Of a DNA stretch of 64,000 bases, positions 394-61,605 are shown in pieces. The translations under genes were made by a program, and so were the position numbers. The notes under the pieces are model-generated. The model had not been told where the DNA came from, did no database searches, and saw only the letters and a list, made by a program, of their open reading frames with translations. Source of the DNA: Octopus vulgaris (lineage: Eukaryota); contig OX597831.1 of NCBI GenBank assembly GCA_951406725.2, forward strand, positions 82,336,001 through 82,400,000, in the 5' to 3' direction. The first letter of the stretch is position 1, and each line of letters begins with the position of its first letter.

Positions 394-474
394 CTCAGTC
401 ACAGCTGGTATCGTAGGGGCTGCTATGAATACCACAAAGGGAGAGAATTCTGCTGTTCGCAACACCTTTACTGC
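394..474 (-). CDS. CASK: CASK GuK exon ([27 protein letters not shown]), 81 nt, phase 0-0
   Basis: Acceptor ttttcag, donor GAG|gtaaaa, branch-point-like ACTAAC about 40 nt upstream. Matches CASK [22 protein letters not shown]. Confidence 0.93.
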
Positions 475-1392
475 CTGAAAAAAATGACAAGCACAAAAAT
501 ATGTGTAAATGTTAGTCGATGGGGGAGAAATCTGTGGCAGTGAAGAAGACAGACCATTGATAAGCCATTTATTTGAGAGAGATGTTAACTGGAGATTAGT
601 TATTCATTGAAAACTACAACAGTAATTAGATGGTTTCAGGGAATGTATTCAAGATATTGTATCATAGATGATAATTTAGGAAACAAACTTCAAGTTTGAA
701 TTCTGAAATCACTATTTGTGCTAATTTTTGTTATTATACCCTGCTATTAATTCTGCTTCAGTACCTGCATAACATAGGGTGCACATGATCCAACCACAGG
801 TAAACATGACTCAGTTTTGTCCTATAAGAGATACCCAGGGATCAGTATGAAGTTCACTTTTTGGGGGGTCTACATTCACGGCTATTTCTCTTTAGTAGGG
901 AGATAGAGTCATTCTAAGATATTGGGACCTTTCTTTGTCTTTTAGTGACAAACAATACTCATGATCTTCAATTTTCTTCAGGGTCTACATGATTTTTAAG
1001 AGGAAGTAATCTTCAAACTGGAGTCCCTTCTCAAAAGGTTGCGACATGAACTCTGTTAAAGGCATCTAAGGACCAGGTGGTGGAGTTAAAGTGGGTGACA
1101 AATTAAATCAACCACCATAGTACATCCTGAAAATACCACAAGGTATCTTGTTTGATAGCCTAACAGTTCCTCCTCACTCAACTGGTTTTATGTTATGAAA
1201 TCCCGCAAAAGATGAAAGGCAGAGTTGACGTCTGTCTGCAGTTTGAATTTAGGACACATCCAGGACAAGTAGACCAAACTACGAGGTTGGTATTTGGGAT
1301 AGATCTGAAGAGGATTAATGTACCCCAAAACATTGTTAATTACAGTTTAGTAAAGAAATCTGCTACATTGTGTCAGTCATGTAGTTATCTAA

Positions 1393-20026: not shown

Positions 20027-20167
20027 CTAAAAGGACCAGTGTCTTCCGTAGAAATGCCGGTAAACGCGCGACTTCTTCATAAGTAACTAAATCCAATTGG
20101 TCAAAAATGGCATTGAGTTTGGCTAAGTATTTGTCTTTTTTTTTCCGTCCAAACCACGAACAGTGAC
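20027..20167 (-). CDS. CASK: CASK HOOK/GuK-start exon ([48 protein letters not shown]), 141 nt, phase 1-1
   Basis: Acceptor tcttccag after a long pyrimidine tract with GCTAAC, donor TAG|gtgagg. Lies inside ORF 19995..20276. Confidence 0.96.
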
Positions 20168-20798
20168 CTGGAAGACAGAGAAGAGAAGAAAGAACGTTAG
20201 CATTAAACAGTATAACAAACGAGTTAATACACACATATATACACACATATACATATATACATGCACGTGTATACATTTATATACACACATCGTGAATATG
20301 TATTGACACATACAGTGGGGTGTCAGTACATAATTGTAAGGGTGTTATTAATGTTCCTCTCATCTGGTGTCCTTGTGGCAAATAAAAGAAATCATTATTA
20401 TTGTTATTATTATCATTATTAAGTTATGCAATTGTTTTCTGGTATTTGTTGTGACTTTTTTACTTTTTGAGTTCAAATTCCACTGAAGTCAAATTTACCT
20501 TTCGTTCTTTCAGGGTCAGTGAAATAAGTCACTGGTCAATCACTGGGGTTAGTCATATCAACTTGTTCCCCTCCCCACCCCATCTACCAAATTTCAGGCT
20601 TTGTACCTAAATTAGAGACTGGTATTCATTATTCAATTCATACCCCACTGAGATTAACTTTGTTTTTCATCCTTTGAAGTCAGTAAAGTACCAGCTAAAT
20701 ACTGGTGTCAGTCTTGCTTCTAAATCGTTTGGATGATTTCATTTATGACCTTTGGTTGTTGTTAAAAGATATCATTATTGCTAGCACTGGGCTTGTGA

Positions 20799-20882
20799 CT
20801 CTATTCCATGTAGTGTTACCTGTTGTGCTCTATTCCATGTAGTGTTACCTGTTGTGCTCTATTCCATGTAGTGTTACCTGTT
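20799..20882. repeat. 29-bp tandem repeat, ~3 copies
   Basis: Unit CTCTATTCCATGTAGTGTTACCTGTTGTG. Confidence 0.92.
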
Positions 20883-22986
20883 TTTTTCCAAGAGTTCCTT
20901 TAACTGTAGTTACACCTTGAGGCATAAAAACAATCTCTTTATCTGCCAGAATATAAAGCAGACATAAAAGCCGATTCCAAAATGTAAAATATGTTAAAGT
21001 GACACTGAACAATGTTTATAGAATAAAGTCTGGAATGTGAAAGAAATTCGGTAAATATGCTGAGTTAATGGAATATTTTCACTTTATATTCCAGGACTTG
21101 ATGCCAGAATAGAGAGAAGAATTTTTAAAAAATAATTAGAATATCTTATCTCACAACATATCAATTAGTTTTGTCTATCTTTAGAGGTTAAAGCAATCAT
21201 CAGGTATTGTGACTAAGATGGAAATAATTATGGTTTATATTCTACATTATTATCAGATTGTTGTTGGGTGAATGGGTAGGGTACTAGGCAGAGAGTGAAG
21301 TTTGTGGTTTTGAGTTCAATTCCAACTGTGGATAGTCTATTGAAATATTGTTCATCTTCAGCAGAACCCTTTAACAAATACCATTTTATTGTCAAGGAAT
21401 TGGCAGACAGGATCGTTCTCTAATTTTAGGCTCTTAATCCACCTTCAACAGGTGACTATACCATGTCGTGTTATCACATTCAACAGGTAACAGTTCCATG
21501 CTGTGGTGCTGTTTCCTAAGCCTTTCTTGTTGTTATTGAGAACCCTCACTCTACCAGGTATGCCTTGATCCAATGATCAGACCTTACAGTCATGGCCACT
21601 TTGTCAAACACTGTAAATTATCTGTTCAGTTTTAAGAAGGCAGTAATTGATTTAAGGTTGACTCGGCTACTATTTTTAGTTGATCAAATGATTTTAAAGG
21701 TTCTCTCTTTGGCTTCTAAGCTTTCCCAAGTGTTTGTAGTTGACAACACATGAAAGGCCATATTATTTACCTATACAAAAAGGTAGCAAGCGAGCAGAAT
21801 CTTTTGAGCATGTCTTGAGATGATTTATAAGTTCAAATCCCACCAAGGCCAACTTTACCTTTCATCCCCACTCTGGGGTCTGTAAAATAAGGAACCTGTG
21901 TCTAGTACAGGGGTCATTCTAAATGACTAACTCCTTCCCCTCATAATTGCTGGCCTTGTGCCTCAACTAGAAATCATTATTACCTGTATTGAAAGCTATA
22001 CAGGTATTATTACATGTGTATGCAGTATTACAGCTCGGTACTAAAACCTTTATGCAGTATTACTGCTTATACACTATTACTTTACAGCTGTATAGTATTA
22101 CATCTTACAAGTACATAAAAAGCTACATAAAAAACCATTTTGCAACTCTGCAGTTTAACTACTTTTATCAAGCAGCATTGAAAGAGATATCTTCGATATT
22201 TTCTCCATTATTGACTGTTTCATTCCATCACTGTGAGGCTTCTTCCTATATCTCTGCAAATCAGAAGATTTACAGCAAAAATAGACTTCATAAAAAGAAA
22301 ATAAAATAAAAAGGCATAATAAACGAAGAAAAAACAAACAAAACAACTGAATCTAATTGAATATGGAATCTATTTTTTTATGTCTTCTTTGCCGTGTAGG
22401 AATATCAAAGCAACAGTTTCAATATGGAACACACTCTGGGAGTCCATTAAACATTCCTCTAGTTTCACGGGGTGAAAGGAGAAAAAAATATGGAAATAAA
22501 AGAAGAAATGAAGCATCTTTTCAGGAAAATCACCAATTTAGAACCTGTAACCATTAGAAGAATATCAGGAATAGATGCAATGGCATGTGGAAATTGGACA
22601 GTAAATTTACTGCCAACTGCTGATAATGTCATTTTATAGGTGCCTTAAGTCAGCTTAATACCAGCTTTATTATTATATCAGCTGAAACATCTATCTGCCA
22701 TTATATTCCTCTCGGCACCTTCACAACTTTCCCATTATTCAATGACACATTTCTCCCAACATTATCTACTTTTCGAAAATCCCTAACTTGCCACTTCATA
22801 TTTCTACTGCTGTCTCCTTTTATTTCAATTTTCTTTTGTTTTGCATAGATGACATCTTAATCTTTGCTGACAGCCATTTTACTTGTGTGTGTGTGTATGT
22901 ACACACTCACACACACACCATGGATACTAATGCTGAACCTGCTATTTTAAAGATAACATATTGGACACTGCTGACTTTGGATTTTT

Positions 22987-23213
22987 AGCGAGCTGGCAGA
23001 AACGTTAGCACACGGGGCTAAATGCTTAGCAGTATTTCGTCTGCTGCTACATTCTGAGTTCAAATTCCGCTGAGGTCGACTTTGCCTTTCATCCTTTCAG
23101 GGTCGATAAATAAAGTACCAGTTATGCACTGAGGTCGATGTAATCGACTTAATCCGTTTGTCTGTCATTGTTTGTCCCCTCTATGTTTAGCCCCTTGTGG
23201 GCAATAAAGAAAT
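22987..23213 (+). mobile_element. tRNA-derived SINE, family S2
   Basis: A-box-like TGGCAGAAACGTT and B-box GAGTTCAAATTCC. Central gcctttcatcctttcagggtcgataaataaagtaccag. Several copies in the window. Confidence 0.85.
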
Positions 23214-25602
23214 ATATAATATGGTAGAGTATATTTGTGTGTGTGTGTGTGTGTGTAGGTAAGTACCACCAAGAAAAGATTATTTAACACTGTTGAATAT
23301 TTGTGTTAATGATTAGTGACATCTCAATCTGCATTAATCAGTCCCACCATCAATGGATCAGCAAATCTGATTCTTCAGAGGATGTTGATCGAAGCGATGA
23401 AGCAGCCAATCCTTTAAAGAAGGATGATTGCCAGTAACGCTCATTCTTAGTTTAGTCTGTCTAGGTCATGTGATGGAAAATTGCTAGGCAACTGGTAGTA
23501 GCTGTAGTGGTTGGGGCTGAACCAGGGACATCTTTGATGCAATAGAAAAGAACCGTATCTCTTGTTTTCAGTTCCAGTGGAATTCCAGTAAAGTCTCAAA
23601 GAAACTAATGAGACACGGTTGGCAAATGACAGGGAACTTTGTATTTTGGTCTTCAAACTACTGTGACTGAGTTCCTTTTGAGCATTGGGCCTCATGAGGG
23701 CAAAGTGGCTGAGCACCTTTTAAGTGTTGGGCCTCATGGAGGCAATGACCAAGACCTTTGGCATTCTGTCGTGCTTGAGAAGAAGACCCATGAGGGCCAA
23801 GCTTTGTTTTAAAGTAAAGGAAAGATAATTTAATATGTTCGAAGACAAAGGAGTAGTAGAGAGATTGTGAACACAGTATGTATGCGTAATGTTCACAAGC
23901 AAAGAAACTGAATGAACTTCTGCACATATCGATCAGCATTGCAATAGATGAACTCTTGCAGCAATCACTGGGAATGCTTAGTTTTCATTTTCCATAATTA
24001 ACTTTTAAATTTATACTTTTTCATTTAAAAAAATACCCAAGTGAGAGATCATTAAATGATGTATTGCTGTATATGTTTGTATGTGAGTTTATGTGTGTTT
24101 TTATGTGTTTGTATATATGCAGAAATACCCTTGGTTGGTGCCAGGGTACACAGTAAAACCAGTGGGAGTAAGGGACACCCCCCCCCGCCACTAGTTGTTG
24201 TTGTTGTTCTAGGAGAAGGACACTGTGATGTAAACCTGTGGTTTCCCATGATTGCTGGTCATCTCACATCAGCCCTTTCACTGGGAACTAATCCCTGACA
24301 CTCACAAAGTGGTATTCATCAGTGGTACAAGCACTTATCACAATCATCCAGTGGCACTTATCTGCTTGTGGTCACCTCATTTGTCATTCCGGCCACTGAA
24401 AGTCCTACGACAGACACTCACCTAACCTGTTGGAAGGGCACTGCTGGTTAGTCTGTCACTTCTGCTTCGAACCATGCAGGTTTGCAAAGGGAATGTATAG
24501 TCAACCGAGAGGTCATGGATGGATAGTCAGAAATACCATTGACAGTGAGGAAGCACAAGGAGATGGCAATCATTTGTGAAAATGGAGCAATTACCATATA
24601 TATATATATTAGGTGCAGGTATGGCAGTGGAATTAAGTTTGCTTCCACACCATGTGGTTTGGGGTTGAGTTCTACAGTGGCACCTTGGACAAATACCTGT
24701 TACTATAGCCTTGACTTCACCAAAGCCTTCTGAATGGATTAGTAGACAGAAACTGACAGGAGCCTCTTGTATGCTTGTTTTTTGTGTTTGTTTATTTTTG
24801 TACTTCTCTGAAAATTGCACAAAACGATGTTGCTTCACTTCTCCAGTCAATGGGCCACCTACCAGCTTTGGGTATTTGAAGGTTTGGGTGGCATAAGACA
24901 TTCCTGACACGAAAAAGAATTAAGGTTTAGTAAATGAAAGGGTATGTGGGTGTAAAACAGTCCCTTGATATATTTGTCTAACACTGCAAGCATGGAAAAA
25001 TGGAAAAATGGACCAAAATCTATTTCTTGGTATTCAGTCACTATTTTCAATCTTTTAGATTGCAAGTATTCTCAGTTATGTCCTTTGAAAGGCTTCGAAA
25101 TTAATTACATCGACTCCAGGACTCAATATGGTGTCTTTTTATTGAATAGCTAAGTCCTTTGGTGCAAAGAGACATAACTCGGTACTACAAGTTATGTTTG
25201 TTCAATGCACTGCTTAACACTCACACGTGCCTAGGCAGCTCCTGTCAAACTGTCCAACCCATGCCAGCATGGAAAGCAGACGTTAAATGATGATGTGTGT
25301 GTGTGTTTGAGAGAGAGAGAGAGAGAGAGAATGGCTTTGCACAATTTCCTCCCCACAAAGCATTGGTTAACCTGAGGCTATGTTAGCAGTGACTTGACTA
25401 ATGTGGAGCACAGAGCCATCTTATTGCAAAGCAAACTTCTTATCCGCTCAGAGATTATACTTTTTTTTTATTGATCTCTCCTTCAGAGGTTAAAACTATT
25501 TCAAGACGTCCACTCACCCACCCATCAACCCACATTTTTCACAAATGCCTAGAAATAAAATGAAGACTACTTTAATATTTGCATGCATAAAATATATTAT
25601 GC

Positions 25603-25662
<60 letters not shown>

Positions 25663-26010
25663 GTACTTATGTATTTGTGTATAAATGTGTGTCTATGTAA
25701 GTCTATATATATATATGTATATATGTGTATCTATGTATATATAAATGTATGCATGTTTATATGTATGTGTCTGTGTGTATATATGCACATGTATATATGT
25801 ATGTGTATGTATTTGTGTGTGTGTGTGTGTGCATATGCACATGTATAACTGTGTGTGTGTATGCACATGTATATAGGTTTATGTACGTATATGTATTTAT
25901 ATATATGTATATAGATAACCTTAATGAAATGAAGGTTACATTGTTGCTTGGAATTTCAATGTTAAGTCACTGACCACTGCAGTGAGTCAACATAGAAACT
26001 GCAGGTGACT

Positions 26011-26041
<31 letters not shown>

Positions 26042-26857
26042 TGTATATTGATCATTCATTTTTATACATTTTGAGATCTGGTTATGTTTTATAAAAGTAT
26101 ATTTTATTGGTTATTTATGTTTTGGTTTATGTCTGTCACTGTTTGAGTTGCATAGAAGTGTTTTTATCTCTAATTTATATTTTATATATTTATATTGTGA
26201 AATTGGATTAAATACTAAATTGAATTTTTCCCTGTAAGTTTGGAGTTATACTCCCTAATATTATCATTATCATTATTATTATTGTTATCATTATTATTAT
26301 TATTTTGTTTTGTACACCACCTGTCTTTGTCTTTTGTTTTTATCGTAAACTCTCCCTATATATAACATACATAGCATTTATTCTGCACAATGTTTTAATA
26401 CCTCATCATAAAATTGAGAATAAGCTGTAACGATGTATAATGCTATTTCTTTATAGTCATATATCATATCTGTCTGCTGCAGCTACAGAATGGTATGATT
26501 GGTGTAGTGCAGTAGAAGCCAGGTACCACATACTGTGAGAGGAAATGGTGGAGATAGGGTTCTGTGACAAATGACCATTAGAAGAGGTGATGAGGTTAGA
26601 TGTATATAGTGCTGCTCACAGACAAGATAAATGGCGAAGTGCCATGCATAGACCCGTCATAAAACCACAGTAGCTTAGAAAAGCATTCACTAAAATCTTA
26701 ATAAGTTGTGATAGATTTATCATTTTAACATCCATTTGTCTTCTCTGTTTAATTGCTGTGTCTCACCACCCTCGTCAGACATGTTATTATGGTTTTTGCA
26801 TGCGGATTAGAACCTTGTGTCACCGAGAGAGAGAGAGAGATAGAGAGGGAGAGATAG

Positions 26858-26923
<66 letters not shown>

Positions 26924-27784
26924 GTGTTTGTCTTTAGTAAGTACCCCAAGCTAGGTTAGGCAATGATCGTTGATGTAACATTTTTCAATTTGAAGAAATA
27001 GAGGAATTTATATTGGAATGGAGATTTTGGAAGAGAATTCTTGGGAAAATATCTGAAATAGAAAGAAGAAACTCGGTGAGGTTTTCCAATATTCGACAAT
27101 CTACTAGCAGTGATGCTGCACTGGCATCATAGCTAGCAACATGTTGTCCTTGTTGGGTTTGATGCCATCAGGAAGGTGAAGAAGATGTTGTTACTTTACT
27201 CACAGAATCAGACAAGATGGATATTAACATGCTGCCAAACCATGTTCTACCGTATAATTTACCATAGTTAGCTGTGTAAGAGAGAGGAAGGGTGAGGAGA
27301 GATTTCCATGGAAGAATAAATGATGTAACCATAGAAACAGCAAATAACATCCATGACGTAGTAAAGATCAAAAAAGAAAGACAATTCCAAGTGCATTTAA
27401 ATCATTCTTTCTTTTTCAATGCTGAAAGCTGATTGGCTGCATAAGTTAAGATAGAATTTGCCAGCAAAGTGAATTACCATTGTCAAATGTAGCTAATAAT
27501 GATTTCTATATAATTAGTTATGCTTAAGATGTATTGTATTCTTTGTATTCCTGTCATAAGTAGCAGGTTTTCATAGAGCAGAGGAAGTTTCTGTTAGTCA
27601 TTAAATATCTGAGACACCAATTTACTTTCTCTCCATCTTCATCTCACCAGTAAAGACCAACAAAGCATCCAACATGGCATAGATATTGACTATAGCACCA
27701 GCCTATACTCTCACTCAAGGCCTTTTATACAGCTGTATAGACATATAGTTACTGGTTGAAACATTAACCTATACTTTTACATGA

Positions 27785-28022
27785 TACCTATTTCTTTACT
27801 ACCCACACAAGGGGCTAAACACAGAGAGGACAAACAAGGACAGACAAACGGATTAAGTCAATTACATCGACCCCAGTGCATAACTGGTACTTATTTAATC
27901 GAGCCCAAAAGGATGAAAGGCAAAGTCGACCTCAGTGGAATTTGAACTCAGAACGTAACGGCAGACGAAATACCGCTAAGCATTTCGCCCGGTGTGCTAA
28001 CGTTTCTACCAGCTCACCGCCT
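27785..28022 (-). mobile_element. S2 SINE
   Basis: Reverse complement of 22987-23213. Confidence 0.85.
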
Positions 28023-28327
28023 TAGTTGTACCTAATGTACAACTATTTAGGCCCACAGTTATAGGCTGCGAAATTAGCTGATACTTTCACATGGTGCCTA
28101 TTATACAGCCAGATAGACTGCTGCAACAACAATACAAACTCAGCTTGTTAGATAATTTGGATGAATAAGATTGGCAAATAGCAACATTGGCAAACTGTTC
28201 GCTTTAAAGTTTTGAATATGTTTCTAATGCAACACAATCTGTTATTTTAGCAAAACTTACTGCTTTGGTGCTCAGTTATGTGATAGAAAGGGACACAACA
28301 GAATACGCACACACACTCCTCCTCCTC

Positions 28328-28404
<77 letters not shown>

Positions 28405-29344
28405 TATACATATACATACAAAGAGAGAACTTCTGGAGTTGATGAATTAACTGCAACTAAGAACTGAAAGCAAACGACATTGGACAGACGAGTAGCAATT
28501 ATAGAGAGACAAGAAGGACAGGTTGTCACAGTGAAGAGTCTTTAAATATCTGTTTATTGGTTGCTGCTGCTGCTGCTGCTTCCAAGTGATAGATGTGTGT
28601 TTGCGTCTGTTATTACTATAGAGGAGGAGGAGGAGGATGTCAATATTACTCTGAAAATTATCTTTCAAAATTTTTCTCAAAGTTGGAAAACTTTCAAAAA
28701 TGATGAAAGAGATAAATCATCAAACTAGTTTGTACAGGTGAATTGGGTGGGGGATGAGAGGGGGAAAAACAGTCAGGTAATTATAGACCTGTATATATAT
28801 ATATTTATGAAGGTAATTATGCACCTGCATATGTACTAATTTATAGATCTGCATATAATAGTTCATCATCATCATTTGTCCTTTTTTTTCCACGCTGGAA
28901 TGGGCTGGAATGGTCTGATAAGAACTGGCAAGCCAGAGGACTGGGCTGGGCTCCAGTGTTTGCCTTGGGGGTGGTTCTACTGCTAGCTGCCTTTCCTAAT
29001 GCCAATCACTTTACAGAGTGTACTAGGTGCCTTTCTCATAGCAACAGTATTCGTAAGGTCACCTAACCCCCAAAAGACAAGGCTCCCTCAGGTGAGTGGG
29101 TTATGTGTGTGTGTATGTATGCATGTTTGTCATTTAGTTTTATTTCTAAATTTCTTGCCACCTGAGAAAGAACCTAGATCCAAGGCTCCTTCATTAGAAT
29201 TTCAACAACATCAGCTGTGTAATTTTTTTATGTATGTATGTATACATGTAGATTCATATGTTTTATGTATATATTCTCATGCATATACTTACATATCTAG
29301 ACATGCTCATATATATATTTAAATGACAAACATCTGGAAAGTTT

Positions 29345-29935
29345 CACAGACTTTTACAGTTCCAGTGATGGATTGGATCTGTAGTCTTCGAATCAACAAC
29401 TTTCTCCTTTCTGGTTTTTGAGAAGCCTAATTTCTCAAGATTGGTATTTAGCCAGTGTGTTACATACCCCATGGACCCAATAATTGCAAGTATAAACCTG
29501 AACTTGTAATATGGATAGAGCAACTCCAGATTTCCCAATAGTTCAGCATAGGTGTTCTCTTTCTTACTGGTCTTCAGCTTTATGTTACCATCTGCTGAGC
29601 ACAGTTTCTATTCTCTATCTCAAATCATTATATCAAGTCTATTCCACTAATACTTCCTTTTCATTTTAAGTGGCTATGGCCTCTACCATACTGTGGGTTC
29701 TTATTTCTTTGTCTTTAGGGTTATCCTTTTGATGGATTTCATTACAGAGTGTCCTAGCTACAACATCATGTCTCATCGATAGATAATACTGTGATGACAT
29801 TTTCAGACAACTGCTTATGATGTGGATAATATCTTCAGTGTTAACTCCACAAAGCCTGCATCGGTTGTCACATTTTGCTGCTTTTCCTGCATCTCTCTCC
29901 CTTTTGTGCATCAGGCATTTGGTTGATAAGTGTGT
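29345..29935 (-). mobile_element. Non-LTR retrotransposon 3' remnant with CCHC knuckle and restriction-like endonuclease region (R4/Dong-like)
   Basis: ORF 29666..29983 reads CRLCGVNTEDIIHIISSC...YYLSMRHDVVA, a CCHC plus RHD motif of REL-endonuclease LINEs. Continues in ORF 29344..29538. Confidence 0.75.
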
Positions 29936-29979
29936 GTCTATGTATGCATGCATGCATACATGGTTCGAATGTACAGAAA

Positions 29980-30125
29980 ACAAAACACAGAGACAGGTGA
30001 GGGAACAAAAAGCAGGTGTATTAGTTTGATGTTCAGGAAAATTGGAAAAGTGTTTGATGGTTCAAGCCTACGCTGTTAACTGGAAAGGGACAAGAGGGCA
30101 AAAATGAAGAGAGAAAACACATCAG
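29980..30125 (-). mobile_element. Penelope-like terminal fragment (P1), diverged
   Basis: Reverse complement of 3050-3222. Confidence 0.5.
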
Positions 30126-30224
30126 AATGAATGGTTCCACTATAAATATATGTTTATAACTATAATAGATCTTCTGTCGAAAACTGTTGTCCCTAGAATA
30201 AAAATTGATAATCTATTGAATATG

Positions 30225-30281
<57 letters not shown>

Positions 30282-30755
30282 TATGGGAAAATAAGAAGAA
30301 CACGGTCTGTTTATCTGTTTCCTGGTTTCTCTCACTTGAGTGTAGCTACAACTTTGAAATTTTCAGTTATGTTCTATCCGTCTTGTAAGGGAGTGCGGAA
30401 CCAAAGTCAACCAAGCCATAAAGGAACCAAGTACCAGAAGGTATTTTTCTTTGACATACCATTCCTTGTTTGCATACATACACACCTGACAGGCATCTGT
30501 GACTTAAAGCTGAAGTACAAGATACTTCCCTAAGGGGCTGCGCAGTGTTAAACGTTGATATTAACAAGTAACCATAATACTTTTATTTTATTAATTTCTC
30601 TAAAAGGAACCATGAAAAATGGAATAAAAGCTGTCAGTTATATCCACCCCACTACCAATCACTTAGTCACAAGATGTGACCAGTGAAGGATGTATTATTA
30701 ATGTTTAAGTTGTCAAATAAATTAACAAAAAACATTAATGTGAAACCACAATTCT

Positions 30756-30880
30756 CATCATTTATCATTATCAATCATCAATCTTTATATAAATCATTTA
30801 TCATTATCAATCATAAATCTTTATATAAATCATTTATCATTATCAATCATAAATCTTTATATAAATCATTATCTTTATCA
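30756..30880. repeat. 36-bp tandem repeat, ~3 copies
   Basis: Unit ATCATTTATCATTATCAATCATAAATCTTTATATAA. Confidence 0.9.
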
Positions 30881-31634
30881 ATCATCTATATTCAAAAGAT
30901 TCTGCCATGCTCTAATTTTTATTTTCACCAAAGAGGTTATCAATGGATACAACACAGTTTGCTGCTCAATAAAGAAGTGAAATCAATGAAGACAAAATTT
31001 TAGGAAACTCAATATAAACCATTCCTGCCAACAGTTCTGGAGAGGAATCTTGCAAACAATGATATCACAGATTTGTTTCCTGAGACAGAGAAACAAAACA
31101 ACAATTTATGGAAAATACAGCAACAGGACAGTTGATAGTTTATATTCTTTCCTGTTCTGCTTTTATCTGTGTTAGTCTCAGTCTATTCAGCTGTAAGCGT
31201 GTACCACATTGTGGTGCTACTCACTCTGTTACTGAGCAAAATGGAGCACTACATGCAAACAGTCTTCCACCATGCCACCCATTATGGAATGTCCAAAATA
31301 ACAGCTTCTAACAAGAGATTTCTTTTATTAACCTCAGAGCAATGACAGACTGTCTCTTTATTGGAATTTGAACTCAGGACACCAAAGGATATAACACGAG
31401 ACATTTAGCCTGACCTTTTATCATTTCTACAGCTTAACAACAACAATAACGATGATGATGGTGACGAGGGCTTCTAATGTAAGCAGTAGAACTCAAATAC
31501 GGCAGGGCAGGAGTAACTTCAGACATTAGCTGATACTTTTTCTCCAACACACAAGGATGAACATTAAAATCTACTTTGGCAGGATTTGAATTTACTCCAG
31601 TGGTGTCCACTACTGCTCTTACTACTATTTCCTG

Positions 31635-31820
31635 AAGTCCCGGTCACTAGTCATTGCCTCGGTGAGACCCGATGTTCGAAGGTCATGCTTCACCACCTCA
31701 TCCCAGCTCTTCCTGGGTCTACCTCTTCTACAGGTTCCCTCAGCTGCTAGGGTGTGGCACTTTTTCATACAGCTATCCACATCCATTCTTGCCACATGAC
31801 CATACCAGTGCAGTCGTCTC
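31635..31820 (-). mobile_element. RTE ORF2 C-terminal fragment
   Basis: Reverse complement of the RRLRWYGHV...[15 protein letters not shown] segment at 32250-32445. Confidence 0.8.
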
Positions 31821-31828
31821 TATGTATG

Positions 31829-31891
<63 letters not shown>

Positions 31892-31902
31892 ATATATATA
31901 TG

Positions 31903-31939
<37 letters not shown>

Positions 31940-32092
31940 GAACATATATATATATATGTATGTATGTATGTATGTGTAGATATATATGTATGTGCATATA
32001 TATGTATGTGTATATATATATGTATATGTATATATGTATGTATATATATATGCATATATATATAAATATATATATATATATGTATGTGTATG

Positions 32093-32125
<33 letters not shown>

Positions 32126-32149
32126 AGTATATGTATGTGTATATATATG

Positions 32150-32180
<31 letters not shown>

Positions 32181-32184
32181 GTAT

Positions 32185-33115
32185 TCTCACCCTGAGAGAA
32201 GCACCCTGACAGAAATGCTGGACATAAGAAGCATCAGATGTGGTGTGCAAGAGCGACGCTTGCGATGGTATGGTCATGTACTGCGGATGGATGAGCAGAG
32301 ATGTGTGAAGAAGTGCCACTCCCAAACTGTTGAAGGTATCAGGGGGAGAGGTAGACCCAGGAAGACATGGGATGAGGTAGTCAAGCATGACCTCAGAGCG
32401 TTGGGCCTCACTGAGGCGATGGCGAAGGACCGAGATCTCTGGAGATATGCTGTGACTGCAAAGACCCGGGCTGCTTCCTGCACCAGTTCCGCATAGCCCC
32501 TGCCCATTCAAAGTACCCTGGATTCCAGAACATCCCGCTGTGCTTGAGGAGACCTGTTGAGTCATGAACATGAACATCGAAATAAATATCAATGGAAATA
32601 GTAGTCGTGATACCTGTGCCGATGGCACATAAAAAGCACCATCCGAACATGGCCGACTGGCTTCTGTGCCGGTAGCACATAAAAAGCACCATCTGAACGT
32701 GGCCGATGCAAGTGCTGCCCTGACTAGCTTCTGTGCCGATGGCACATAAAAAGCACTGTCCGAACGTGGCCGATGCCAGCGCTGCCTCGACTGGCTCCAG
32801 TGCCGGTGGCACATAAAAAGCACCATCCAAACGTGGCCGTTGCCAGCGCCGCCTTGGCTGGCTTCCGTGCCAGTGGCACGTTAAAAGCTCCAACCGATCG
32901 TGGATGATGCCGGACCACCCCTGGCACCTGTGCAGGTGGTTTGTAAAAAGCGCCTACTACACTCACGGAGTGGTTGGCGTTAGGAAGGGCATCCAACTGT
33001 AGAAACTCTGCCAGATCAGACTGGAGCCTGGTGCAGCCCCTGGCTTCCCAGACCCCGGTCGAACCATCCAACCCGTGCTAGCGCAGAAAACGGACGTTAA
33101 ACGATGATGATGATG
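32185..33115 (+). mobile_element. RTE-clade LINE 3' end (ORF2 C-terminus, 3' UTR with ~67-bp internal repeats, (GAT)n tail)
   Basis: ORF 32131..32496 reads [14 protein letters not shown]...[17 protein letters not shown]. Confidence 0.88.
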
Positions 33116-33254
33116 TGTAGTATATGTATATGTATATATATGTATGTGTAGTATATATATGTGTATATATATGTATGTGTAGTATATATATGTGTATATA
33201 TATATGTATGTGTATATGTGTGTGTATATATATATATATGTGTGTGTGTATGTA

Positions 33255-33305
<51 letters not shown>

Positions 33306-33319
33306 TCGAACTCAGTACA

Positions 33320-33605
33320 CATATCAACATTACGTCACAATTACTTCACCTCAACCAGTCCAGCTCCCTTTAATACCATATCAAAATACATCAAAACGGA
33401 AACGGATCCCATAAAATTCAAGCGTTCACAGGACAAATTTCTTCAAAAAATCCTGGACCAACCTCTTATACCCGGATATGCCTCCAACAATAATAACCCA
33501 TTGATATAGTGGGTTGTGGTACTCCATATATGACTAAAAGGCTTCACCAGGAAGTGCTATTGAGTTAGACATGGCCTGAGCCTATACTGGCTGAAACTCA
33601 TCAGT
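33320..33605 (+). mobile_element. CR1-type LINE 3' fragment
   Basis: KYIKTETDPIKFKRSQDKFLQKILDQP..PGY and the tail are homologous to 53590-53870. Confidence 0.85.
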
Positions 33606-33606
33606 T

Positions 33607-33930
33607 ATACATGCATGCATGCATGTATGTATGTATGTATGTATGTATGTATGTATGTATGTATGTATGTATGTATGTATGTATGTATGTATGTATGTAT
33701 GTATGTATGTATGTATGCATGCATGCATGTTTGTATGTATGTATGTATGTATGTATGTATGTATGTATGTATGTATGTATGCATGTATGTATGTATGTAT
33801 GTATGTATGTATGTATGCATGCATGCATGCATGCACGCACGTACGTACGTACGTATGTACGTACGTATGTATGTATGCATGCATGCATGTATGTATGTAT
33901 GTATGCATGTATGTATGTATCTATGCATGT
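33607..33930. repeat. (ATGT)n / (ATGC)n tetranucleotide microsatellite
   Basis: Directly visible. Confidence 0.97.
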
Positions 33931-34282
33931 GCAAGACCCTGCCTCTATAAAGCTGGACTCAAGAGTCATCTTCGTAGTCATAAAGCGAGACAGATGAGTG
34001 ACAACCTGGCCACTGTGGTTTGTGTTACACACCATACTAATCATATCTGTCGGGCATGTGGAAGAGAGTGTAATTCGGCAGGAGGACTTAAACGACATGC
34101 AAAGGTACATGAAGCCCAGTTACAACTACAGCCGGTTATTACCAGTGAAGGTTTTAGTTGCCAATTCTGTACAAGACATTGTAGATCTTTAGCTGGGCTA
34201 AAAAGTCACATTCGATCACAGCACCAGTAACAGTTAAGCTTCGTGCAATGGCCATACTCGATAACGAGGGGGCAGCCATAAT
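33925..34282 (+). mobile_element. 5'-truncated retro-fragment encoding C2H2 zinc fingers (probable RTE-type LINE 3' end)
   Basis: C..PCLYKAGLKSHLRSH, CRACGRECNSAGGLKRHAKVH, CQFCTRHCRSLAGLKSHIRSQH, stop at 34230, then a short tail. Embedded in microsatellite; no TGEKP linkers. Confidence 0.65.
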
Positions 34283-34587
34283 ATGTATGTATGCATGCAT
34301 ACATGCATGTATTTATATATGCATGTATATATTTATACATATGTGTGTGAGCGTTATACTAATACATCTGTTTGTTTTGTACACCACCCGCCTTCATCTT
34401 TTGTTTTTCTCATGAACTCTCCCCCTGTATGTATATATATATGTGTATATATTTATATATATATGTATGTATTTATATATGTGTGTGTATGTATATATGT
34501 GTATATACGTATTTATATATGTGTATGTATATATATATATATATATGTGTATATATATATGTGCGTGTGTGTGTATATATGCATATA

Positions 34588-34735
34588 TATGAGAGTGAGT
34601 CAAAAAGTAATGCCTTTTTGTGTAGGAGAGGTATAATTACCAACACAGAAACATGTATCATACATCAAAATGAAGCTGGTCCTCTGTGGATCACATCCCT
34701 ACTTCTCAACATAGTCACCGTTTCTCTCTGTGATG
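34588..34735 (+). mobile_element. Possible mariner terminal fragment
   Basis: TATGAGAGTGAGTCAAAAAGTAATG resembles a mariner TIR starting at TA. No partner end seen. Confidence 0.4.
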
Positions 34736-34762
34736 GGGTCAAGAGATGATAGTCCATATATA

Positions 34763-34838
<76 letters not shown>

Positions 34839-37800
34839 TAGATAGATAGATATTTTTTATTTTTTTATTTTATTTTATATAGTTTCAGCTCACGAGCTGT
34901 GGCCATGCTGGGGCACCGCCATATATAGATATATATGGATACACATATATGAATACGCATGTGTATGTATACATATCCTCTTCTTGGAAGAAAATGTGCC
35001 ACTGAGAACATTGACAAGTTTTTACCAAGTATGGAAGCTGTTCATTCTTGTGTCCAAATCAACCACAACTTGTTTGCACTCTTTATTTTCCTTGATTTAT
35101 TAAACACTATGAAATTTTGTGTCTGTTTTTCACACAGCGAAGAAAGAGAAATTCTTCTATTAATTTTGTAGCATAAAAATTCTTTTTCTTTTTTTTTAAT
35201 GAATCTGATTTTAATGAAGTAAATAGCATAATTAAATAAATTTAATTACAAGTATTTGTAATTAATGCTTCATGGAGTTCAGTACTTTTATAAATTGTGA
35301 TTAACTAACAGTTTATTGTAGATGAGAGGGTAACATCATTGACCAAATAAATAAACCACATGACAACCAGTTTGACCAATTGCTGACCCTGCATTACGTC
35401 AGTGGTCACATGGCTCAGTTCACTTAGCTGAACATAGGTACCACATTATAGTGACAATACATTGGTCTAAACAACCACACTGTTAGACATAATTGTTACT
35501 TAGCTTGATAACTGACAGTGTTAAGTTAAACTCCTTCAAGGGATTTGAGGAAAATACCCCATTACTGAATCTCACCCAAGAGATCAACTGTAATCCCTGC
35601 CCCACCCCATTGGATCTAGGGACTGGTTCTGATTTTTAACTGCTGCTGATAAAATCAAACTGATCACAGACAAGACATCTACCACAAAAGATCTGACCAT
35701 CAAAAAGAGTAGAGTTCGATAAACCGAAATACACGTTGGTACATTCATTGTTATTCATTTCACTTTTTGAGGAACTCTCAGAACTATCTTCCTGTAATGA
35801 CTTAAAGGTGTTAGTTTTTGTCATAACATGTTATCACTGCTTTTCCTCTTTGTGTGCAAAGCTTTTCAATATTAAATTTGTGATGAGAATTGTTTGAGAA
35901 CAGTGTGACAAAACAACTACAACATAAAGACAACAGGCTGAACGATATCTGTATAATGTATAGAGAGATGTGTAGGGAAAATTACAATGAAATTCACCTG
36001 GAAAATTATAAAATTATGTGGAAAATGACAGAATTACATGAAAGCAACAAAAAAATTAAATATATAAATAAAAACCAATGGTTATCATTAAATAAATAAC
36101 AAATATGAGGAAAGATTTTAATGATTGATAGTAAAGTGTTTAAATTAGTGTATACAAACTAGAGAGAAGAGACTCTGACATATGATTGGAGGGGATTAGC
36201 AGTGGATTAGAGGATTAGCAGATATTTAAAGTGGATTGTGAATAAAAATAATTTAGAACAAACAGAAAACCAGGAAATGTTTGTGATGGAGAAATTAGAG
36301 GTTTTATAGCAAAAGCAAAATATTAATAATGGCTAATGACACTGCTGTTGCTAATGATTACAAATACACACAGGCACACACATCTTTATATATATATATT
36401 TCATGCAGATAAAGATTCTGTGTGTGTGTGTGTGTGTGTGTGTATACATATGTATGTATGTATGTATATGTATGTATATATGCACAGACACATGCTAAAC
36501 ATAACCACACACACAACATACATGATGTATATTAAAGAACATAACAAGAACAAGAAACTCAAAGAAACAACAGTGAAGCCTCACTCCTGAATGAATAAAT
36601 TACGTCCACTTTGTGTATTGAGTACTATTTTCTCTCATTTACTTATCCAAGCATGTAAGTGTGGTGTACGTACATACTTACACACATGAACACACCCTCT
36701 CACAATACACATTTGTGTGTGTGTGTATATATGTGTGAGTGTGTGTATGTGTGTATTTGTGTGCGCACGCACATCAGCTTTTAACTTTTCATGTGATTCC
36801 TGACGAAGTGTTTTGATTTATTCATGTTTGAAAACAATGACGACAACAGCAATATTACAAACATCAAAGCCACACCCATCACCACCATCAACAACAACAA
36901 CAACAACAACAACAACATTGAAAGACGAGCTGATGGAGGCAACTATTAAAATTAAACTGTAGAATTTAAAATTTGAAAGTCTGTGAATCAACATTACTGA
37001 TAACAATGTTGGCTGTTGAGGCAGATAACAATCTCTTGCAAAACAGAAAGAAATATCGAATCGCAAGTTAGTCTTTCAAATTGAAGTCAGCAGTGTTGAT
37101 CTAGATTACAAATTTAGTAATTAAATATATTTTTGCTATCAACTTTTGAATCAGTTAATATTTATTTCATATTTATTTCATTGTTGTCAAAAATATCAGT
37201 AAATTACTGATAATTAGGTCAATAGAAATATTTATAATTATTTGTTAAAATTGTTTATTTCAAATTTATTAAAAAAAAGCCTTGAAAATATTTGATTTTT
37301 ATTTCTATTCTATCTTTTTATTTTCATGTGTTTGAAAAAAAAATACTACAAGAATCTAAAAATGTCGAAATAGATGTCTACAACATTGAATATTATTTAT
37401 TTAATTTAGTACAAACTAATGAATTCATTTATTCTTTAATCTAGTTATAGAAGCAGAACAAAAGTCACTAATTATCCCATCCGATGCTCTAAGAATTCCA
37501 TCAAGCCGCTTCTGCCTTGAACTGGGGCTTTATTAACTCCAATCCAGGATGAAACAGTTGATCTTGCTGGGATTTGAACTCACAATGCAAGAAATCAGAA
37601 CATGTACTGCAATGCATTTTACTCTCAAGATGTTGTTTATGCAGCTTCCCTGGCCAATGAGTGCCCACATGGTTATTAATTTATCAGAAATAGCTGCAAA
37701 ATCGCCTGACAAAGGAAGGACTCATTGGATAATGTAGATAAACTGAATAAAAGACAGAAATGTCAATAATAGAGCATCAGGAATCTGTGGATTGACCAGG

Positions 37801-38401
37801 GGTCAGTGCTAGAACACTGACTGTGGGCTAATAGCTGGCCTTCAACATACTTCAGTGTCCACAAAAATATTACAAAATGAGTTTCCAAGAATTAAATATT
37901 TATTTCTCTTTCACATAAACACCAAATTAATAATATAAAAACAGAATTATTTTCCCAAATTCTCCAAGATTATTGATTATTCAGAACATTAAATACGAAG
38001 ACCGTTGTTGTTGATAGATTACAAAGTGATACAACAACAGTGAAGGAATACAGTTTTATATTTTCTAAACCTGATTCTAAAATTTAATGGGGGGGGGGGG
38101 GTGAGATAGCAGAGCACCACACTAGATTCCTCATAGTATTCACTTACATGTCTCTGACTATACTGTAAGCACAGATGCATAAAAGTAGCTGAAATATAAC
38201 TGGCTCAGTAACCTCTTGCATTAGTGTTTGGCTTTGTGCCTTGTTAAAGATGTGGTTCATTAGTTAAGTATCTAATTAGTAATGATAATAAGATAATATT
38301 GCCACTTAATGAATGTATGGACAAATGTAAACATTCAGGAAATCTTGTTGTTCTACTCACTCATTAATCATTTCACTCGAATGTTTACATAACTCATTTA
38401 A

Positions 38402-38437
<36 letters not shown>

Positions 38438-40246
38438 TAACTATGTCCAGGGTATGATTTAATGTACTACAAGTGTTGGAGGGTAAGAGGAAATGACTTA
38501 TCTAGTTCTGGTTTGTAACATTGTGAGTTCAAATCCTGTCGAGGTCAACTTTGCCTTAAATCCTTCTGAGATTAACAAGTACGGTAAACTACTCTTCATT
38601 TGCTTCTTAATTTATCATCTAAATTATAATTTTCTACTGGAATCGGTGAACAGTAGCATTGTCATTACGTTACAGGATTCCAACAAATCAAAAAGTGAAT
38701 CACTGCATTTCTGATGGTGAGGGCCATAAGGGAGTGTCTGTATCTTGGTGCAGAAAAACTGTTGTAAGGAACTTCTTTTGAAAAGCTTTTCTGGTTGATA
38801 GAAATCAGCAAAAGCAGTGTCCATTGAGTAAATTTCACTCACAAAGCATTAGTTAACCCATTGTTTTGAGTAGAAAGCACCTTGGGATTGAACCCAAAAC
38901 CATGTAGCTGTGAGGTAACTAAACAATGGTCATCGCTAACTTCACCTTTGCTGTTTACATTGTCGTTGTCACAGTATTTGTTACAAAGTGATTACTTTAT
39001 AGTAAATAGTCTACATTGTACTTACAGCGGTTCCTATGTAGTGTTTGTGCTATAGTTGTCTTAGTATTTAGCAAGTGAAACCTCCTTTGTTACATGTGTG
39101 TCTAACTGTAAATACAATGCATGTAGAAACTCCAAAAGAGTTTCTTCATGAGACTCTGTGAGCAGAAAGTTCCATCAACTCTGCCACCTCTTTTCTATAG
39201 AATACTTTTAACAACTACTTTAAAAATTGTTTACAAGAATTAAGTAAAGATGTTTTCTCAGAACCGAAAGTAAAAAGAATATTTCTAGATGAAGGATTAG
39301 AATCTCTTGAAACAGTGAAAGATATTAACCATAAATACTGGCAGAAACTGAGAACAATTTAAAATGTAAATCGGAAGATTAAAGAAGAAAAAAAAAAGGA
39401 TTTAGGAAAATAGATTATAAATTCCTGCCTTTTTATGTTGCAAGAGTTGGTTAAAAGGATCATTTAAATTATTTTACACTTTCAATAAAAATAAAAGAAG
39501 CAACCCATAATAAAATAAATCTCATATTTTAAAGTTCCAGCATTAGTGGAACTTTGTGTAATCTTCCATTTAGTTTGAAAGTTATTTGTTAAGATTGACC
39601 CCCAATCAATCTCTAAATCACCAATAAGTTAGTTTGATCAGTTTAAAAACGATGTTGCAAGTTAATATTCAAGTGGATTCACTAGTTTTATTATTTTCTC
39701 TCTCCATTTTTTCTTTAAATTGTGTCAGCTTTAAAGCTGTGGTCATGCTGGGGCACCACTGTTGAACTTTTGAAATAAAAACACAATAACTCTAGCCAAA
39801 AAGAATGGTGGTGGGGAGAGTGTGTGTGTGAAGAATAAGAAACATATGGCATCATTCTAAGAACATAACGGAAATAAAGAAAGACTATAAGTGTTGGAAG
39901 TGCAAGTTGTGAATTTTGAATAAATAACTAAAGGTTGCTGTTAAATTTCTGATGGCAAACTAATTCAGGTTAACACAGGAAACATACTTTGAAGAAAGAA
40001 ATGGAAAATCAGTTATAAAATTGCAAGTGGTTATATTTGTTTCTGTTTTTGTGTTAAGAAATCTTCTTTCAATAATCTAAATGTCACGACATGCAAGTTA
40101 GTGGAGCTTGGCAGAAAAAGAATAAAATTAAGCCGAGAGTGAAATATATTTTCTATCTAATCGCTTTGGTAGCTTTGTACATATATACTTGCCTCCATTT
40201 TCTCGTCTGGAATACTTGTCTATATTTTCTTTCTTCGAATACTTGC

Positions 40247-40394
40247 CTGCACTCTCCTGTTTGGCTCTCTCAGAAGCTGCCGATGCCACACGACATTCTT
40301 GCAACTCTGGAGACGGTATAAGACCGGCTGGCTCCGTGGAGGGTGAGTTCCACTTTCGGGCCTGCCACCAATGAGGGTCATCTTTGTTGATTAC
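40247..40394 (-). CDS. CASK: CASK SH3 second exon ([49 protein letters not shown]), 148 nt, phase 0-1, GC donor
   Basis: Acceptor tttcag. WWQ and GLIPS are SH3 motifs. Donor CAG|gcaagt gives the phase 1 required by the next exon. A second in-frame GC donor would end the exon at 40193. Confidence 0.9.
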
Positions 40395-40567
40395 CTGAAA
40401 CACACCAAAACATACACACCTGTCAATGAAGGCAAATCTAATTATTTCAACCATCATATTAGTTATTGTAGTAATTATAAATCAGATTTCTGTGTTCAAT
40501 AAAGAAGAAACCAATGTGTGAACTAGACTTTAGCAATCAGTTGCTTAATTAATAATAATAATAATAA

Positions 40568-40762
40568 TCCTTTCTACTAAGGCACAAGGCCTGAAATTTT
40601 AGGAGATGGGACCTAGTCGATAACATCAACCCCACTGTTTTACTGGTACTTAATTTATCGACCCTGAAAGGATGACAGGCAAAGTCAACCTCAGTGGAAT
40701 TTGAACTCCAAACGTAAAGACAAATGAATTGCATTTTTGTCTGATGTGCTAATGATTCTGCT
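40568..40762 (-). mobile_element. S2-like SINE in the intron between the two SH3 exons
   Basis: ctggtacttaatttatcgaccctgaaaggatgacaggcaaagtcaacctcagtggaatttgaactc. Confidence 0.75.
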
Positions 40763-41351
40763 GATTTAAATAATACAACTAATAATAATAAGTATTAAAG
40801 TCTCGATGACATCTTGTTTAGTTATTCCCATTTTGTAATAAATGACATAATATTAGAACATCATATAATTAAGTTAATGAGAAATTGTTATAAATGTAAA
40901 ATTATTTTGGAATTATTTAGTTTTTTTAAGAATCTTTGGGGTTCAGTAGAGGTTAAAAACTATTGTAATGACTATTGTAAATGGTTACTGCAATGATTGT
41001 TGTAATAACTGTACTGTAAGGACTACTGTGAATGATAGTACTACAATGGCTGTTGTAATGACCACTGCAATGATTGTCACAATGACTCAACAGAGGAAAC
41101 AGATGTGTAATTATTTTTGAAGTCCGTTTAAACATTTCTCATAGAGTCTGGATTCCATTTATCTGGAAATTTACAATGTTGCATTCACTTTTAGAGATTT
41201 AATGTCACACACCAACTTGTCCCATGCTCGAATGTTGCTAAATATTTATCTGTAGACCCCCACCCCTACAAACTAATCCTCGTGTGGAAGAGCTAGATGG
41301 TTTCATACTGGTAAATAGCTAAAGAAGAGAAGGTAGAACTTATCAATTTAC

Positions 41352-41450
41352 CTGTAATACATCTCCGATTTTGAAGGGTATTCCGGCTTGGGGGCAAGGA
41401 TTTAGTTCATCGGATGTTGGATCATAATCAAACAGAGCCCGAACAAATAT
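41352..41450 (-). CDS. CASK: CASK SH3 first exon ([33 protein letters not shown]), 99 nt, phase 0-0
   Basis: Acceptor ttccatag, donor CAG|gtaaat. Contains the ALFDYDP SH3 motif. Not in the ORF track; translated by hand. Confidence 0.95.
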
Positions 41451-42439
41451 CTATGGAAATGAAAGTTGAGAAAAAAAAAGAAAAAGAAAAAAAAACAACA
41501 GATATTGATAATAATTATTAGAATTTTTTAAATAAAAAATATTAGAAAAACTAAAGAAACAAAAACACCAAAACTTTTTTTTAAAATGCACCGTTAATTA
41601 AAACAATCAATGTTCAATTAATAGCAACAATTCTCAAGCCTTCTGGAAACAATGTAAGAGTTAAGTTTAAGAATTATATTTCCCAAATTGAACATAGGTA
41701 AGTGCAGATTTTGGCAAGTGTTTCTAGCAAAGTTGGCTGACCACATAGAAGCTACTTTCTTAGCCCGTATAACTTTTTGTTATTCCTCAGTTTTGCTTTA
41801 ACATGCTTCATACACTAATATAGTGTTTATTTTTTATGTCTGTACAGGTATGTCTTGGACGAGGCTTATTGCAATAATGTTCCATGGCCAGATGTTCTTG
41901 ATATCAACCTCTACTTGCTTCCAATTAAGGTGTGTTTAATTCATATCGTCTATAAGTGGCATTAACAAATATCCCTGCTGCTTTAATGTCTGTCAATGTG
42001 GAGACATGCATGCACGTGCGCCTACACACATACACACAAGAAAGAGACAGCCTACTGTACCGTTTTAGTGCATTCAGTCAGGGGCCATAGTAGAAGGCAC
42101 TTGACCAAGATGTCACAGAGTGAAATCAAACTGGAAACCATGCAGTTATGAAGTGAACTATTTAGCTATACATCCCCACCACCACCACCACCACCACACA
42201 CATTGTTGAACTTTAGAGGCCAGGGTCATTTTTGTCAATAAAAAACACACTCAATGGTTCTGTTTTGCTTCTTATTATTAGTGGTCAACAAGTTAAGGAC
42301 AGTGGATTGATAGCATCAAAAGAGCATCAGACATATAAGGTAATATCAAAAGGCTCCTGGACTAGTTCTGTAGTGCACCAACAGAGGGCAGCACATGGTT
42401 GCATGTGCAGCGAGAGCTAGCAGTGACCTCCATGAGGCA

Positions 42440-61332: not shown

Positions 61333-61451
61333 GCAAAATAAAAATGAAACAAAAAATTAACAATGAACTGGCACCAGACTATATAGCTACTGCTAGACTG
61401 GGTAGGGGTCACTGCTGCCGGTGAAAGGCTGCAGGTGAATAGGATGATTAC

Positions 61452-61505
61452 CTCACACCGAGCCGGAACATATCTGTAACTAGGTACAGTCCGTTGTGCT
61501 TCTTT
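61452..61505 (-). CDS. CASK: CASK PDZ-SH3 linker exon B (KEAQRTVPSYRYVPARCE), 54 nt, phase 0-0
   Basis: Acceptor tttctgtcattccag, donor GAG|gtaatc, no stop. VPSYR...CE matches the end of the CASK PDZ-terminal exon. Confidence 0.8.
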
Positions 61506-61605
61506 CTGGAATGACAGAAATTGACAAGAAAGGTGCTTCAGAGAAAAGGGAAGTGAACAAGAAAATAAAGAGGATATAAGCAGTCTCAGATAAGGAATAA
61601 CATAC

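Follow-up and report, generated by a model that had tools for sequence, protein, structure and literature searches.

The CASK gene of Octopus vulgaris raises the question of how a single exon-intron junction came to hold two GC donors in the same reading frame, whether both are used, and what difference the segment between them makes to the protein. The explanation that best accommodates the observations, and that can be held with considerable confidence, is that the two in-frame donors, 54 nt apart, likely stem from triplication of a 27-nt junction segment in a cephalopod ancestor, and that the resulting insert likely adjusts partner binding by the HOOK region. The conserved alternative 5′ splice site that octopus CASK carries is real, and its origin is unusually legible.

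The window, meaning the whole 64-kb stretch of DNA that was analyzed, contains octopus CASK on the minus strand, with exons located by tblastn from 61701 down to 394. At the exon near 61500, the sequence sides with O. sinensis against O. bimaculoides, as expected of O. sinensis or a close relative. Most of these exons are 97-100% identical to Octopus CASK, and they encode the PDZ, SH3, HOOK and GK segments of a CASK/LIN-2 MAGUK. The human CASK GK domain (1kgd) matches one of the collected proteins, P0027, with E=1.8e-86, and the full-length matching protein P0002 has CaMK and L27 N-terminal domains (precomputed Pfam) that are encoded outside the window. Between 40394 and 40247 (minus strand), the exon shows no difference from Octopus CASK; taken singly, it gave a sub-threshold SH3 match in Pfam and no match in a PDB search. 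The relevant part of the gene is organized as follows.

41352..41450, minus strand: upstream CASK exon encoding the first half of SH3, with a GT donor; the 957-nt intron that follows is spliced out in all four RNA-derived runs
40247..40394, minus strand: core exon encoding the remaining half of SH3 plus the HOOK helix; its end is the ancestral proximal donor
20168..40192, minus strand: GC-AG intron with a pyrimidine-rich acceptor, 20,025 nt from the distal donor or 20,079 nt from the proximal one
20027..20167, minus strand: downstream exon encoding the basic HOOK cluster RKKKDK and the start of the GK domain

The large intron has the features of a U2-type GC-AG intron, with donors that match 8/9 and 7/9 of the consensus and an AG acceptor preceded by a pyrimidine tract at 20168, and it is spliced: contigs leave the genome at 40192 in three of the four runs and branch there in the fourth. 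The junction at its 5′ end consists of the following elements.

40241..40246, minus strand: proximal GC donor GCAAGT (CAG|GCAAGT, 8/9), orthologous to the outgroup GT donor and giving the short isoforms
40214..40219, minus strand: dead middle donor copy ACAAGT, with G+1 changed to A
40187..40192, minus strand: distal GC donor GCAAGT (GAG|GCAAGT, 7/9), used in RNA-derived contigs
40193..40246, minus strand: alternative exon extension of 54 nt or 18 residues, 72% purine, with six GAA/CAA triplets
40184..40264, minus strand: three tandem 27-nt copies spanning the ancestral exon-intron junction, each unit comprising 18 exon and 9 intron nt

Thus listed, the donors on the minus strand follow one another at 27-nt spacing as CAG|GCAAGT (exon end 40247), TAG|ACAAGT (40220) and GAG|GCAAGT (40193), with U1 consensus scores of 8/9, 6/9 and 7/9, respectively. 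All three sites fall in phase 1 in the exon frame read from 40394, which suits the downstream exon, opening with GT-CAC at 20167. GT dinucleotides in the same phase are poor candidates (2/9 at 40253 and 4/9 at 40181), and the better ones, at 40243, 40216 and 40189 (5-6/9), are in phase 2. The first-pass annotation had described two in-frame AG|GCAAGT donors exactly 54 nt apart with an inactivated copy between them, both in the phase needed downstream and neither rivaled by a better in-phase GT, the distal one adding 18 residues ahead of an intron of about 20 kb, and each of these points is borne out by the coordinates, phases and in-frame translation given here.

That description attributed the second donor to duplication. 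Tandem copying did take place, but it involved more than a donor: the entire junction was triplicated as a 27-nt unit, with copies at 40264-40238, 40237-40211 and 40210-40184 that agree pairwise at 18, 20 and 18 of 27 positions, as against 5/27 for comparison with either flank. Tandem Repeats Finder (TRF) reports a period of 27, 2.4 copies and 78% matches, and a degenerate pattern of the unit has two matches versus a mean of 0.00 in 100 shuffles, a lenient control in that the pattern was itself derived from the copies. The motif AGGCAAGT occurs three times on both strands of the 64-kb window, two of these at the repeat. In the protein register, the copies read RAKQESAGK / YSKKENIDK / YSRRENGGK. 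The exon part of copy 1 agrees with copy 3 at 9/15 positions, a score attained by 2/250 null in-frame 15-mers, and agrees poorly with copy 2 (7/15, attained by 41/250 null 15-mers). RNA folding of 40170-40280 revealed no unusual structure (z=-0.94; 36/200 shuffles equally stable).

Both donors are represented among recorded proteins. The Octopus-type proteins scored, 16 in all (15 of 38 cluster members plus P0001), comprise 10 long and 6 short forms, and both isoforms are present in each of O. bimaculoides, where 3/8 listed RefSeq isoforms are short and one of these is identical to GenBank UVH70852.1, and O. sinensis, where 3/6 are short. RefSeq isoforms rest on RNA evidence. The 12 Sepia or Sepia-like proteins are divided into 6 long and 6 short, with 1 long and 3 short forms in Sepia pharaonis and 5 long and 3 short among Logan full-ORF contigs with Sepia-like residues. 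Recorded proteins join ESAG or ENGG straight to HCSWF. Because all recorded forms make this direct join, no intermediate exon is needed, and none is present in the recorded proteins, in keeping with the expectation of the earlier annotation. The two donors are joined to the same acceptor, with the short form coming solely from annotation records and Logan proteins, and in Octopus from annotation records. The proposal that they act as alternative 5′ splice sites accordingly stands on isoforms of both kinds in two Octopus species and Sepia, and contigs attest to the distal junction.

Comparison with other lineages indicates which donor came first. The insert is absent from 86/86 scorable mollusc proteins outside the cephalopods (gastropods, bivalves and a chiton; 89 were examined, three of them without the region). 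At the genomic level, the donor at the proximal position is GT in 78/78 outgroup loci, representing 54 distinct junctions, with two further loci spliced; these are the best 80 of 204 metagenome relatives, none of which is cephalopod-like (best identity 69%), and by sequence most are annelid-like and two are bivalve. No Nautilus sequence was recognized among the matches. Since the outgroups have GT at the proximal position, this site is ancestral, and its GC dinucleotide and the extension are derived.

Under the same repeat scoring (n=64), all outgroup loci but one reach at most 15/27. The exception, L039 (27/27), is an annelid-like metagenome contig in which 83 nt spanning the orthologous CASK exon end (positions 1300-1550) were recently triplicated in tandem; the copies differ at a few bases and supply three GT donors, of which the two additional ones are out of frame. 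If real, L039 would show a mutation of this type soon after its occurrence, and an assembly artifact is possible.

The age of the extension can be gauged from its conservation. Between octopus and Sepia, 17/18 residues of the insert are identical, compared with 46/49 in the flanking exons, and for the Logan protein P0005, the corresponding values are 15/18 and 45/48. As this level of conservation is close to that of the flanking exons, the extension predates the split of the octopus and cuttlefish lineages and is under selection on the protein, the splicing signals or both. The octopus-cuttlefish split dates to roughly 270-300 million years ago.

These observations can be assembled into a likely sequence of events. 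The ancestral junction would have been the proximal one, with GT as its donor dinucleotide, as in outgroups. The GT then became GC, probably before the triplication, given that C is found at +2 in all three copies; this is weak evidence in that the positions are silent third codon positions and were read in octopus DNA alone. A unit length divisible by three left the reading frame intact, and G+1 disappeared from the middle donor; both are visible in the sequence. Both remaining donors are GC and so would be similarly weak, and a GT at the proximal site would make a 9/9 consensus that would probably win outright. The purine-rich GAA/CAA elements of the extension probably favor the distal site. 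Six such triplets are reached by 42/720 exon windows (which include a few intron bases) and 5/368 intron windows, and a synonymous-recoding null gives P=0.046, such that an enhancer role for this enrichment is suggestive only. A precedent comes from BTK, in the available part of the account of which a weak GC site beat a strong GT through GAA/CAA enhancers in an exonised segment. More generally, the accessible portions of two surveys describe GC donors as weaker than GT donors, compensated by a stronger consensus and enriched in alternative introns (PMC3167603; PMC2490688). Purifying selection acted on the extension, as seen at the protein level, before octopus and cuttlefish diverged.

The position of the insert suggests what it might do. 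It contains six K/R and three D/E residues and lies just N-terminal of the basic RKKKDK cluster, six residues before it rather than inside it. In AlphaFold models, the HOOK helix ends at the junction, the insert falls in a stretch with pLDDT<50 and the basic cluster that follows is unstructured; the long form was modeled for Octopus and the short form for Sepia, with low confidence across the HOOK region in both, and the models are uninformative about function. PALS1 provides the nearest solved PDZ-SH3-GK chains, but the HOOK region is missing from their alignments, so these offer no template for the insert. In mammals, the CASK HOOK region binds protein 4.1 and the dystrophin complex, according to the available part of 10.1101/813030, and related MAGUKs are described in similarly partial texts, in which MPP1 uses a KKKKYKDK cluster for 4.1R (PMC7662862) and the I3 insert of SAP97/DLG1 decides calmodulin binding to HOOK (PMC9307800). 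Calmodulin binding by the CASK HOOK region is not documented in the literature consulted, and the tuning of a protein 4.1/calmodulin-binding HOOK proposed in the first-pass annotation is putative. Given a basic insert that is predicted to be disordered and the binding of the mammalian HOOK cluster to its partners, the octopus insert could well have a spacer-and-charge role, lengthening the linker from the HOOK helix to the lysine cluster, to which protein 4.1 binds in mammalian MAGUKs, and perhaps altering access to this cluster or SH3-GK closure. A phospho-switch operated by serines of the insert was considered and rejected, as these serines are replaced by proline in Sepia-like proteins. The cluster itself (20140-20125, minus strand) reads RKKKDK in Octopus and most molluscs, three residues shorter than the RKKKQYKDK-like cluster found in the chiton, annelids, insects and deuterostomes.

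Another possibility, though a rather unlikely one, is that both forms are made and that the insert is filler of no functional consequence, accommodated by a disordered loop that is permissive to insertions. The low model confidence across HOOK in both forms and the substitution of the potential phospho-site serines by proline would suit such a loop, as would the unrelated inserts that occupy the same HOOK position in 42/45 insect proteins (16-25 residues) and 6/9 proteins of the ribbon worm Lineus (16 or 22 residues, with two different starts; P0098, P0181, P0113, P0150, P0213 and relatives). The insert is, however, conserved between octopus and cuttlefish about as well as the flanking exons, and in both Neodiprion and Lineus, insert-bearing forms coexist with insert-free ones, which suggests repeated use of the site at the start of HOOK. 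A role for the octopus insert in HOOK partner binding thus remains the preferred reading. The start of CASK HOOK is a site at which optional inserts evolved separately in cephalopods, in insects and in a ribbon worm, which opens HOOK function to testing with natural variants.

The relative use of the donors was assessed in RNA-derived contigs rather than reads, in four runs (X3, X7, X9 and X20) of 24 listed, over 39900-41500; these come from four studies and two organisms. None of the listed runs is recorded as RNA, and the four are taken to be cDNA on the strength of the spliced 957-nt intron found in each. Every one of them has a contig that lacks this intron and then continues through 40247 to 40192 with 0 mismatches. 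In X7, X9 and X20, the contig record extends beyond 40192 without matching the local genome. In X3, the spliced contig ends at 40192, a second contig runs into the intron at depth 16, and the excess bin depth implies a further short piece of ~30 nt at depth ~58. Both continuations, into the intron and into the downstream exon, open with G before diverging, so a contig joined to 20167 would be expected to match the genome as far as 40192; the partner exon of the distal junction is taken from the proteins rather than from contig letters. The proximal junction is seen in none of the four runs, and there is no extra depth at 40247; contigs drop rare variants, and their lack of the short form does not amount to its absence. 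As only distal-donor contigs are seen, the derived long form looks dominant in these four runs. Within the 957-nt intron, the segment 40600-40760 is a high-copy, transcribed repeat to which thousands of contigs per run map, and it is probably a common octopus interspersed repeat.

The intron-entering contig of X3 bears on a further outcome, in which neither donor is used, for which two elements of the intron are relevant.

40128..40130, minus strand: stop codon that a transcript spliced at neither donor would reach after 21 intron codons
39687..39692, minus strand: first AATAAA downstream of the distal donor, in an A-rich run; a candidate intronic poly(A) signal or internal-priming site

The X3 contig passes the distal donor unspliced and reaches ~39736 if colinear, ~45 nt before this AATAAA, and the upstream intron has no cover in X3 at 40440-40547 or 40818-41303. 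The four runs of X3's study hold 0.92 of words, versus 0.69 in the other runs guessed to be RNA. GC donors have been linked to intronic polyadenylation in human annotation, in the available part of PMC7242645. The read-through, which comes from one study, fits intronic polyadenylation and nascent RNA primed on the A-run equally well, and a read-through tail is found in none of the proteins collected. It is a possible but improbable extension of the scheme that the twin weak GC donors form a three-way switch specific to coleoids, yielding a short HOOK, a long HOOK or a read-through transcript polyadenylated near 39690. The product of the last of these would be a CASK protein devoid of the 4.1-binding cluster and the whole GK domain.

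Contigs of the long form alone, in 4/4 runs, might be taken to mean that this form is effectively constitutive in Octopus and that the short form reflects infrequent, noisy splicing at a vestigial ancestral donor that persists only through the coding role of its bases. The bases of the proximal donor do encode G-K-Y of the insert, and protein selection alone could keep most of them. This interpretation nonetheless seems quite improbable in the face of short isoforms in O. bimaculoides (3/8 listed), O. sinensis (3/6), Sepia (3/4) and the Logan contigs (3/8), and of an 8/9 consensus retained at the proximal donor. A genuine alternative 5′ splice site, with the long form prevailing in the runs at hand, accounts better for both kinds of record.

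A mechanistic variant would have the short mRNA made in two steps, the 54-nt GC...AG segment being removed as a mini-intron or recursive step that recreates AG|GCAAGT. The segment starts with GC and ends with AG directly before a donor, and both routes would give the same mRNA, but a segment of only 54 nt that is 72% purine has no pyrimidine tract of the kind a recursive site carries, and no 54-nt skip is present among the joints listed, making this route very improbable. That the GC dinucleotides are assembly or sequencing errors for GT is scarcely credible, as both are matched with 0 mismatches, the proximal one by contigs from four runs and the distal one by the X3 contig that enters the intron.

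With the choice between two spliced GC donors thus favored, the event is of a known type, that of exons with alternative 5′ splice sites, in this case bordering a GC-AG intron, and both isoforms are already in public annotations. No published description of it was found in a literature search that covered few subscription journals; the insert peptides were not found in three supplementary files of PMC9282427, and the available parts of PMC11718197 and PMC3488318 contain nothing direct on it. The triplication of the CASK junction reveals no new mechanism. Its interest lies in the birth of an alternative splice site that is legible in the DNA long afterwards, as three junction copies, one dead and two live, both GC, which makes it a rare case.

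The nearest parallels differ in instructive ways, insofar as the accessible portions of the sources allow comparison. The cases of Koren et al. (2007; PMC1876488) likewise involve a new in-frame intronic donor that competes with an ancestral one and an extension that is a multiple of three, but their new sites arose by point mutation, with duplication not mentioned in the text, whereas octopus CASK underwent junction triplication. In those cases, moreover, the ancestral form is the major one and the extension is poorly conserved; in octopus CASK, the derived form is found in 4/4 runs and the extension is well conserved, so the newer isoform seems to have outstripped the ancestral form, opposite to the usual pattern in the accessible text of that study. 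A tandem duplication that copies a splice signal, with a length divisible by three that allows alternatives, is described in the available part of Lehmann et al. (2010; PMC2891723); in their model, a new intron comes from a duplicated exonic proto-splice site, whereas in octopus CASK, an existing donor was copied and intron became exon. U2-type GC-AG introns, as portrayed in partial texts (PMC2490688; PMC3167603; PMC7242645), resemble this one in near-consensus GC donors derived from GT and in alternative use, and BTK intron 3, seen in similarly partial form, resembles it in a GAA/CAA-rich exonised segment like the CASK extension. Unlike the GC-AG cases known from these texts, both rival donors in octopus CASK are GC and are copies of one another; they lie 54 nt apart, as opposed to the common 4 nt, and they begin an inner intron of 20 kb, human GC-AG introns being, by contrast, shorter on average.

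On the protein side, within what the accessible passages cover, the I2/I3 inserts of SAP97/DLG1 (PMC9307800) and the octopus insert are alike in that splicing alters a disordered basic HOOK region between SH3 and GK, and exon 23L of human CASK (PMC8208546) is alike in that HOOK is changed by alternative splice-site choice. As far as can be seen from these texts, SAP97/DLG1 I2/I3 and CASK 23L are unrelated to the octopus insert in sequence and origin. DLG1 I3 differs further in having partners that have been shown, calmodulin and protein 4.1, whereas those of the octopus insert are putative.

Other parts of the gene also show variation. Isoform X8 of O. sinensis (P0024) has a GK segment that is 64% identical to the window exon at 394-477 (minus strand), which suggests a mutually exclusive GK exon outside the window. 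The Aplysia CASK record P0061 contains the segment from SH3 through HOOK to the start of GK twice, as either a true exon duplication or an annotation artifact. P0027 lacks a small exon at 61443-61540 (minus strand), between PDZ and SH3, which in Sepia P0037 is extended at its 5′ end; it is likely another alternative exon with alternative acceptors, comparable to human exons 19/20.
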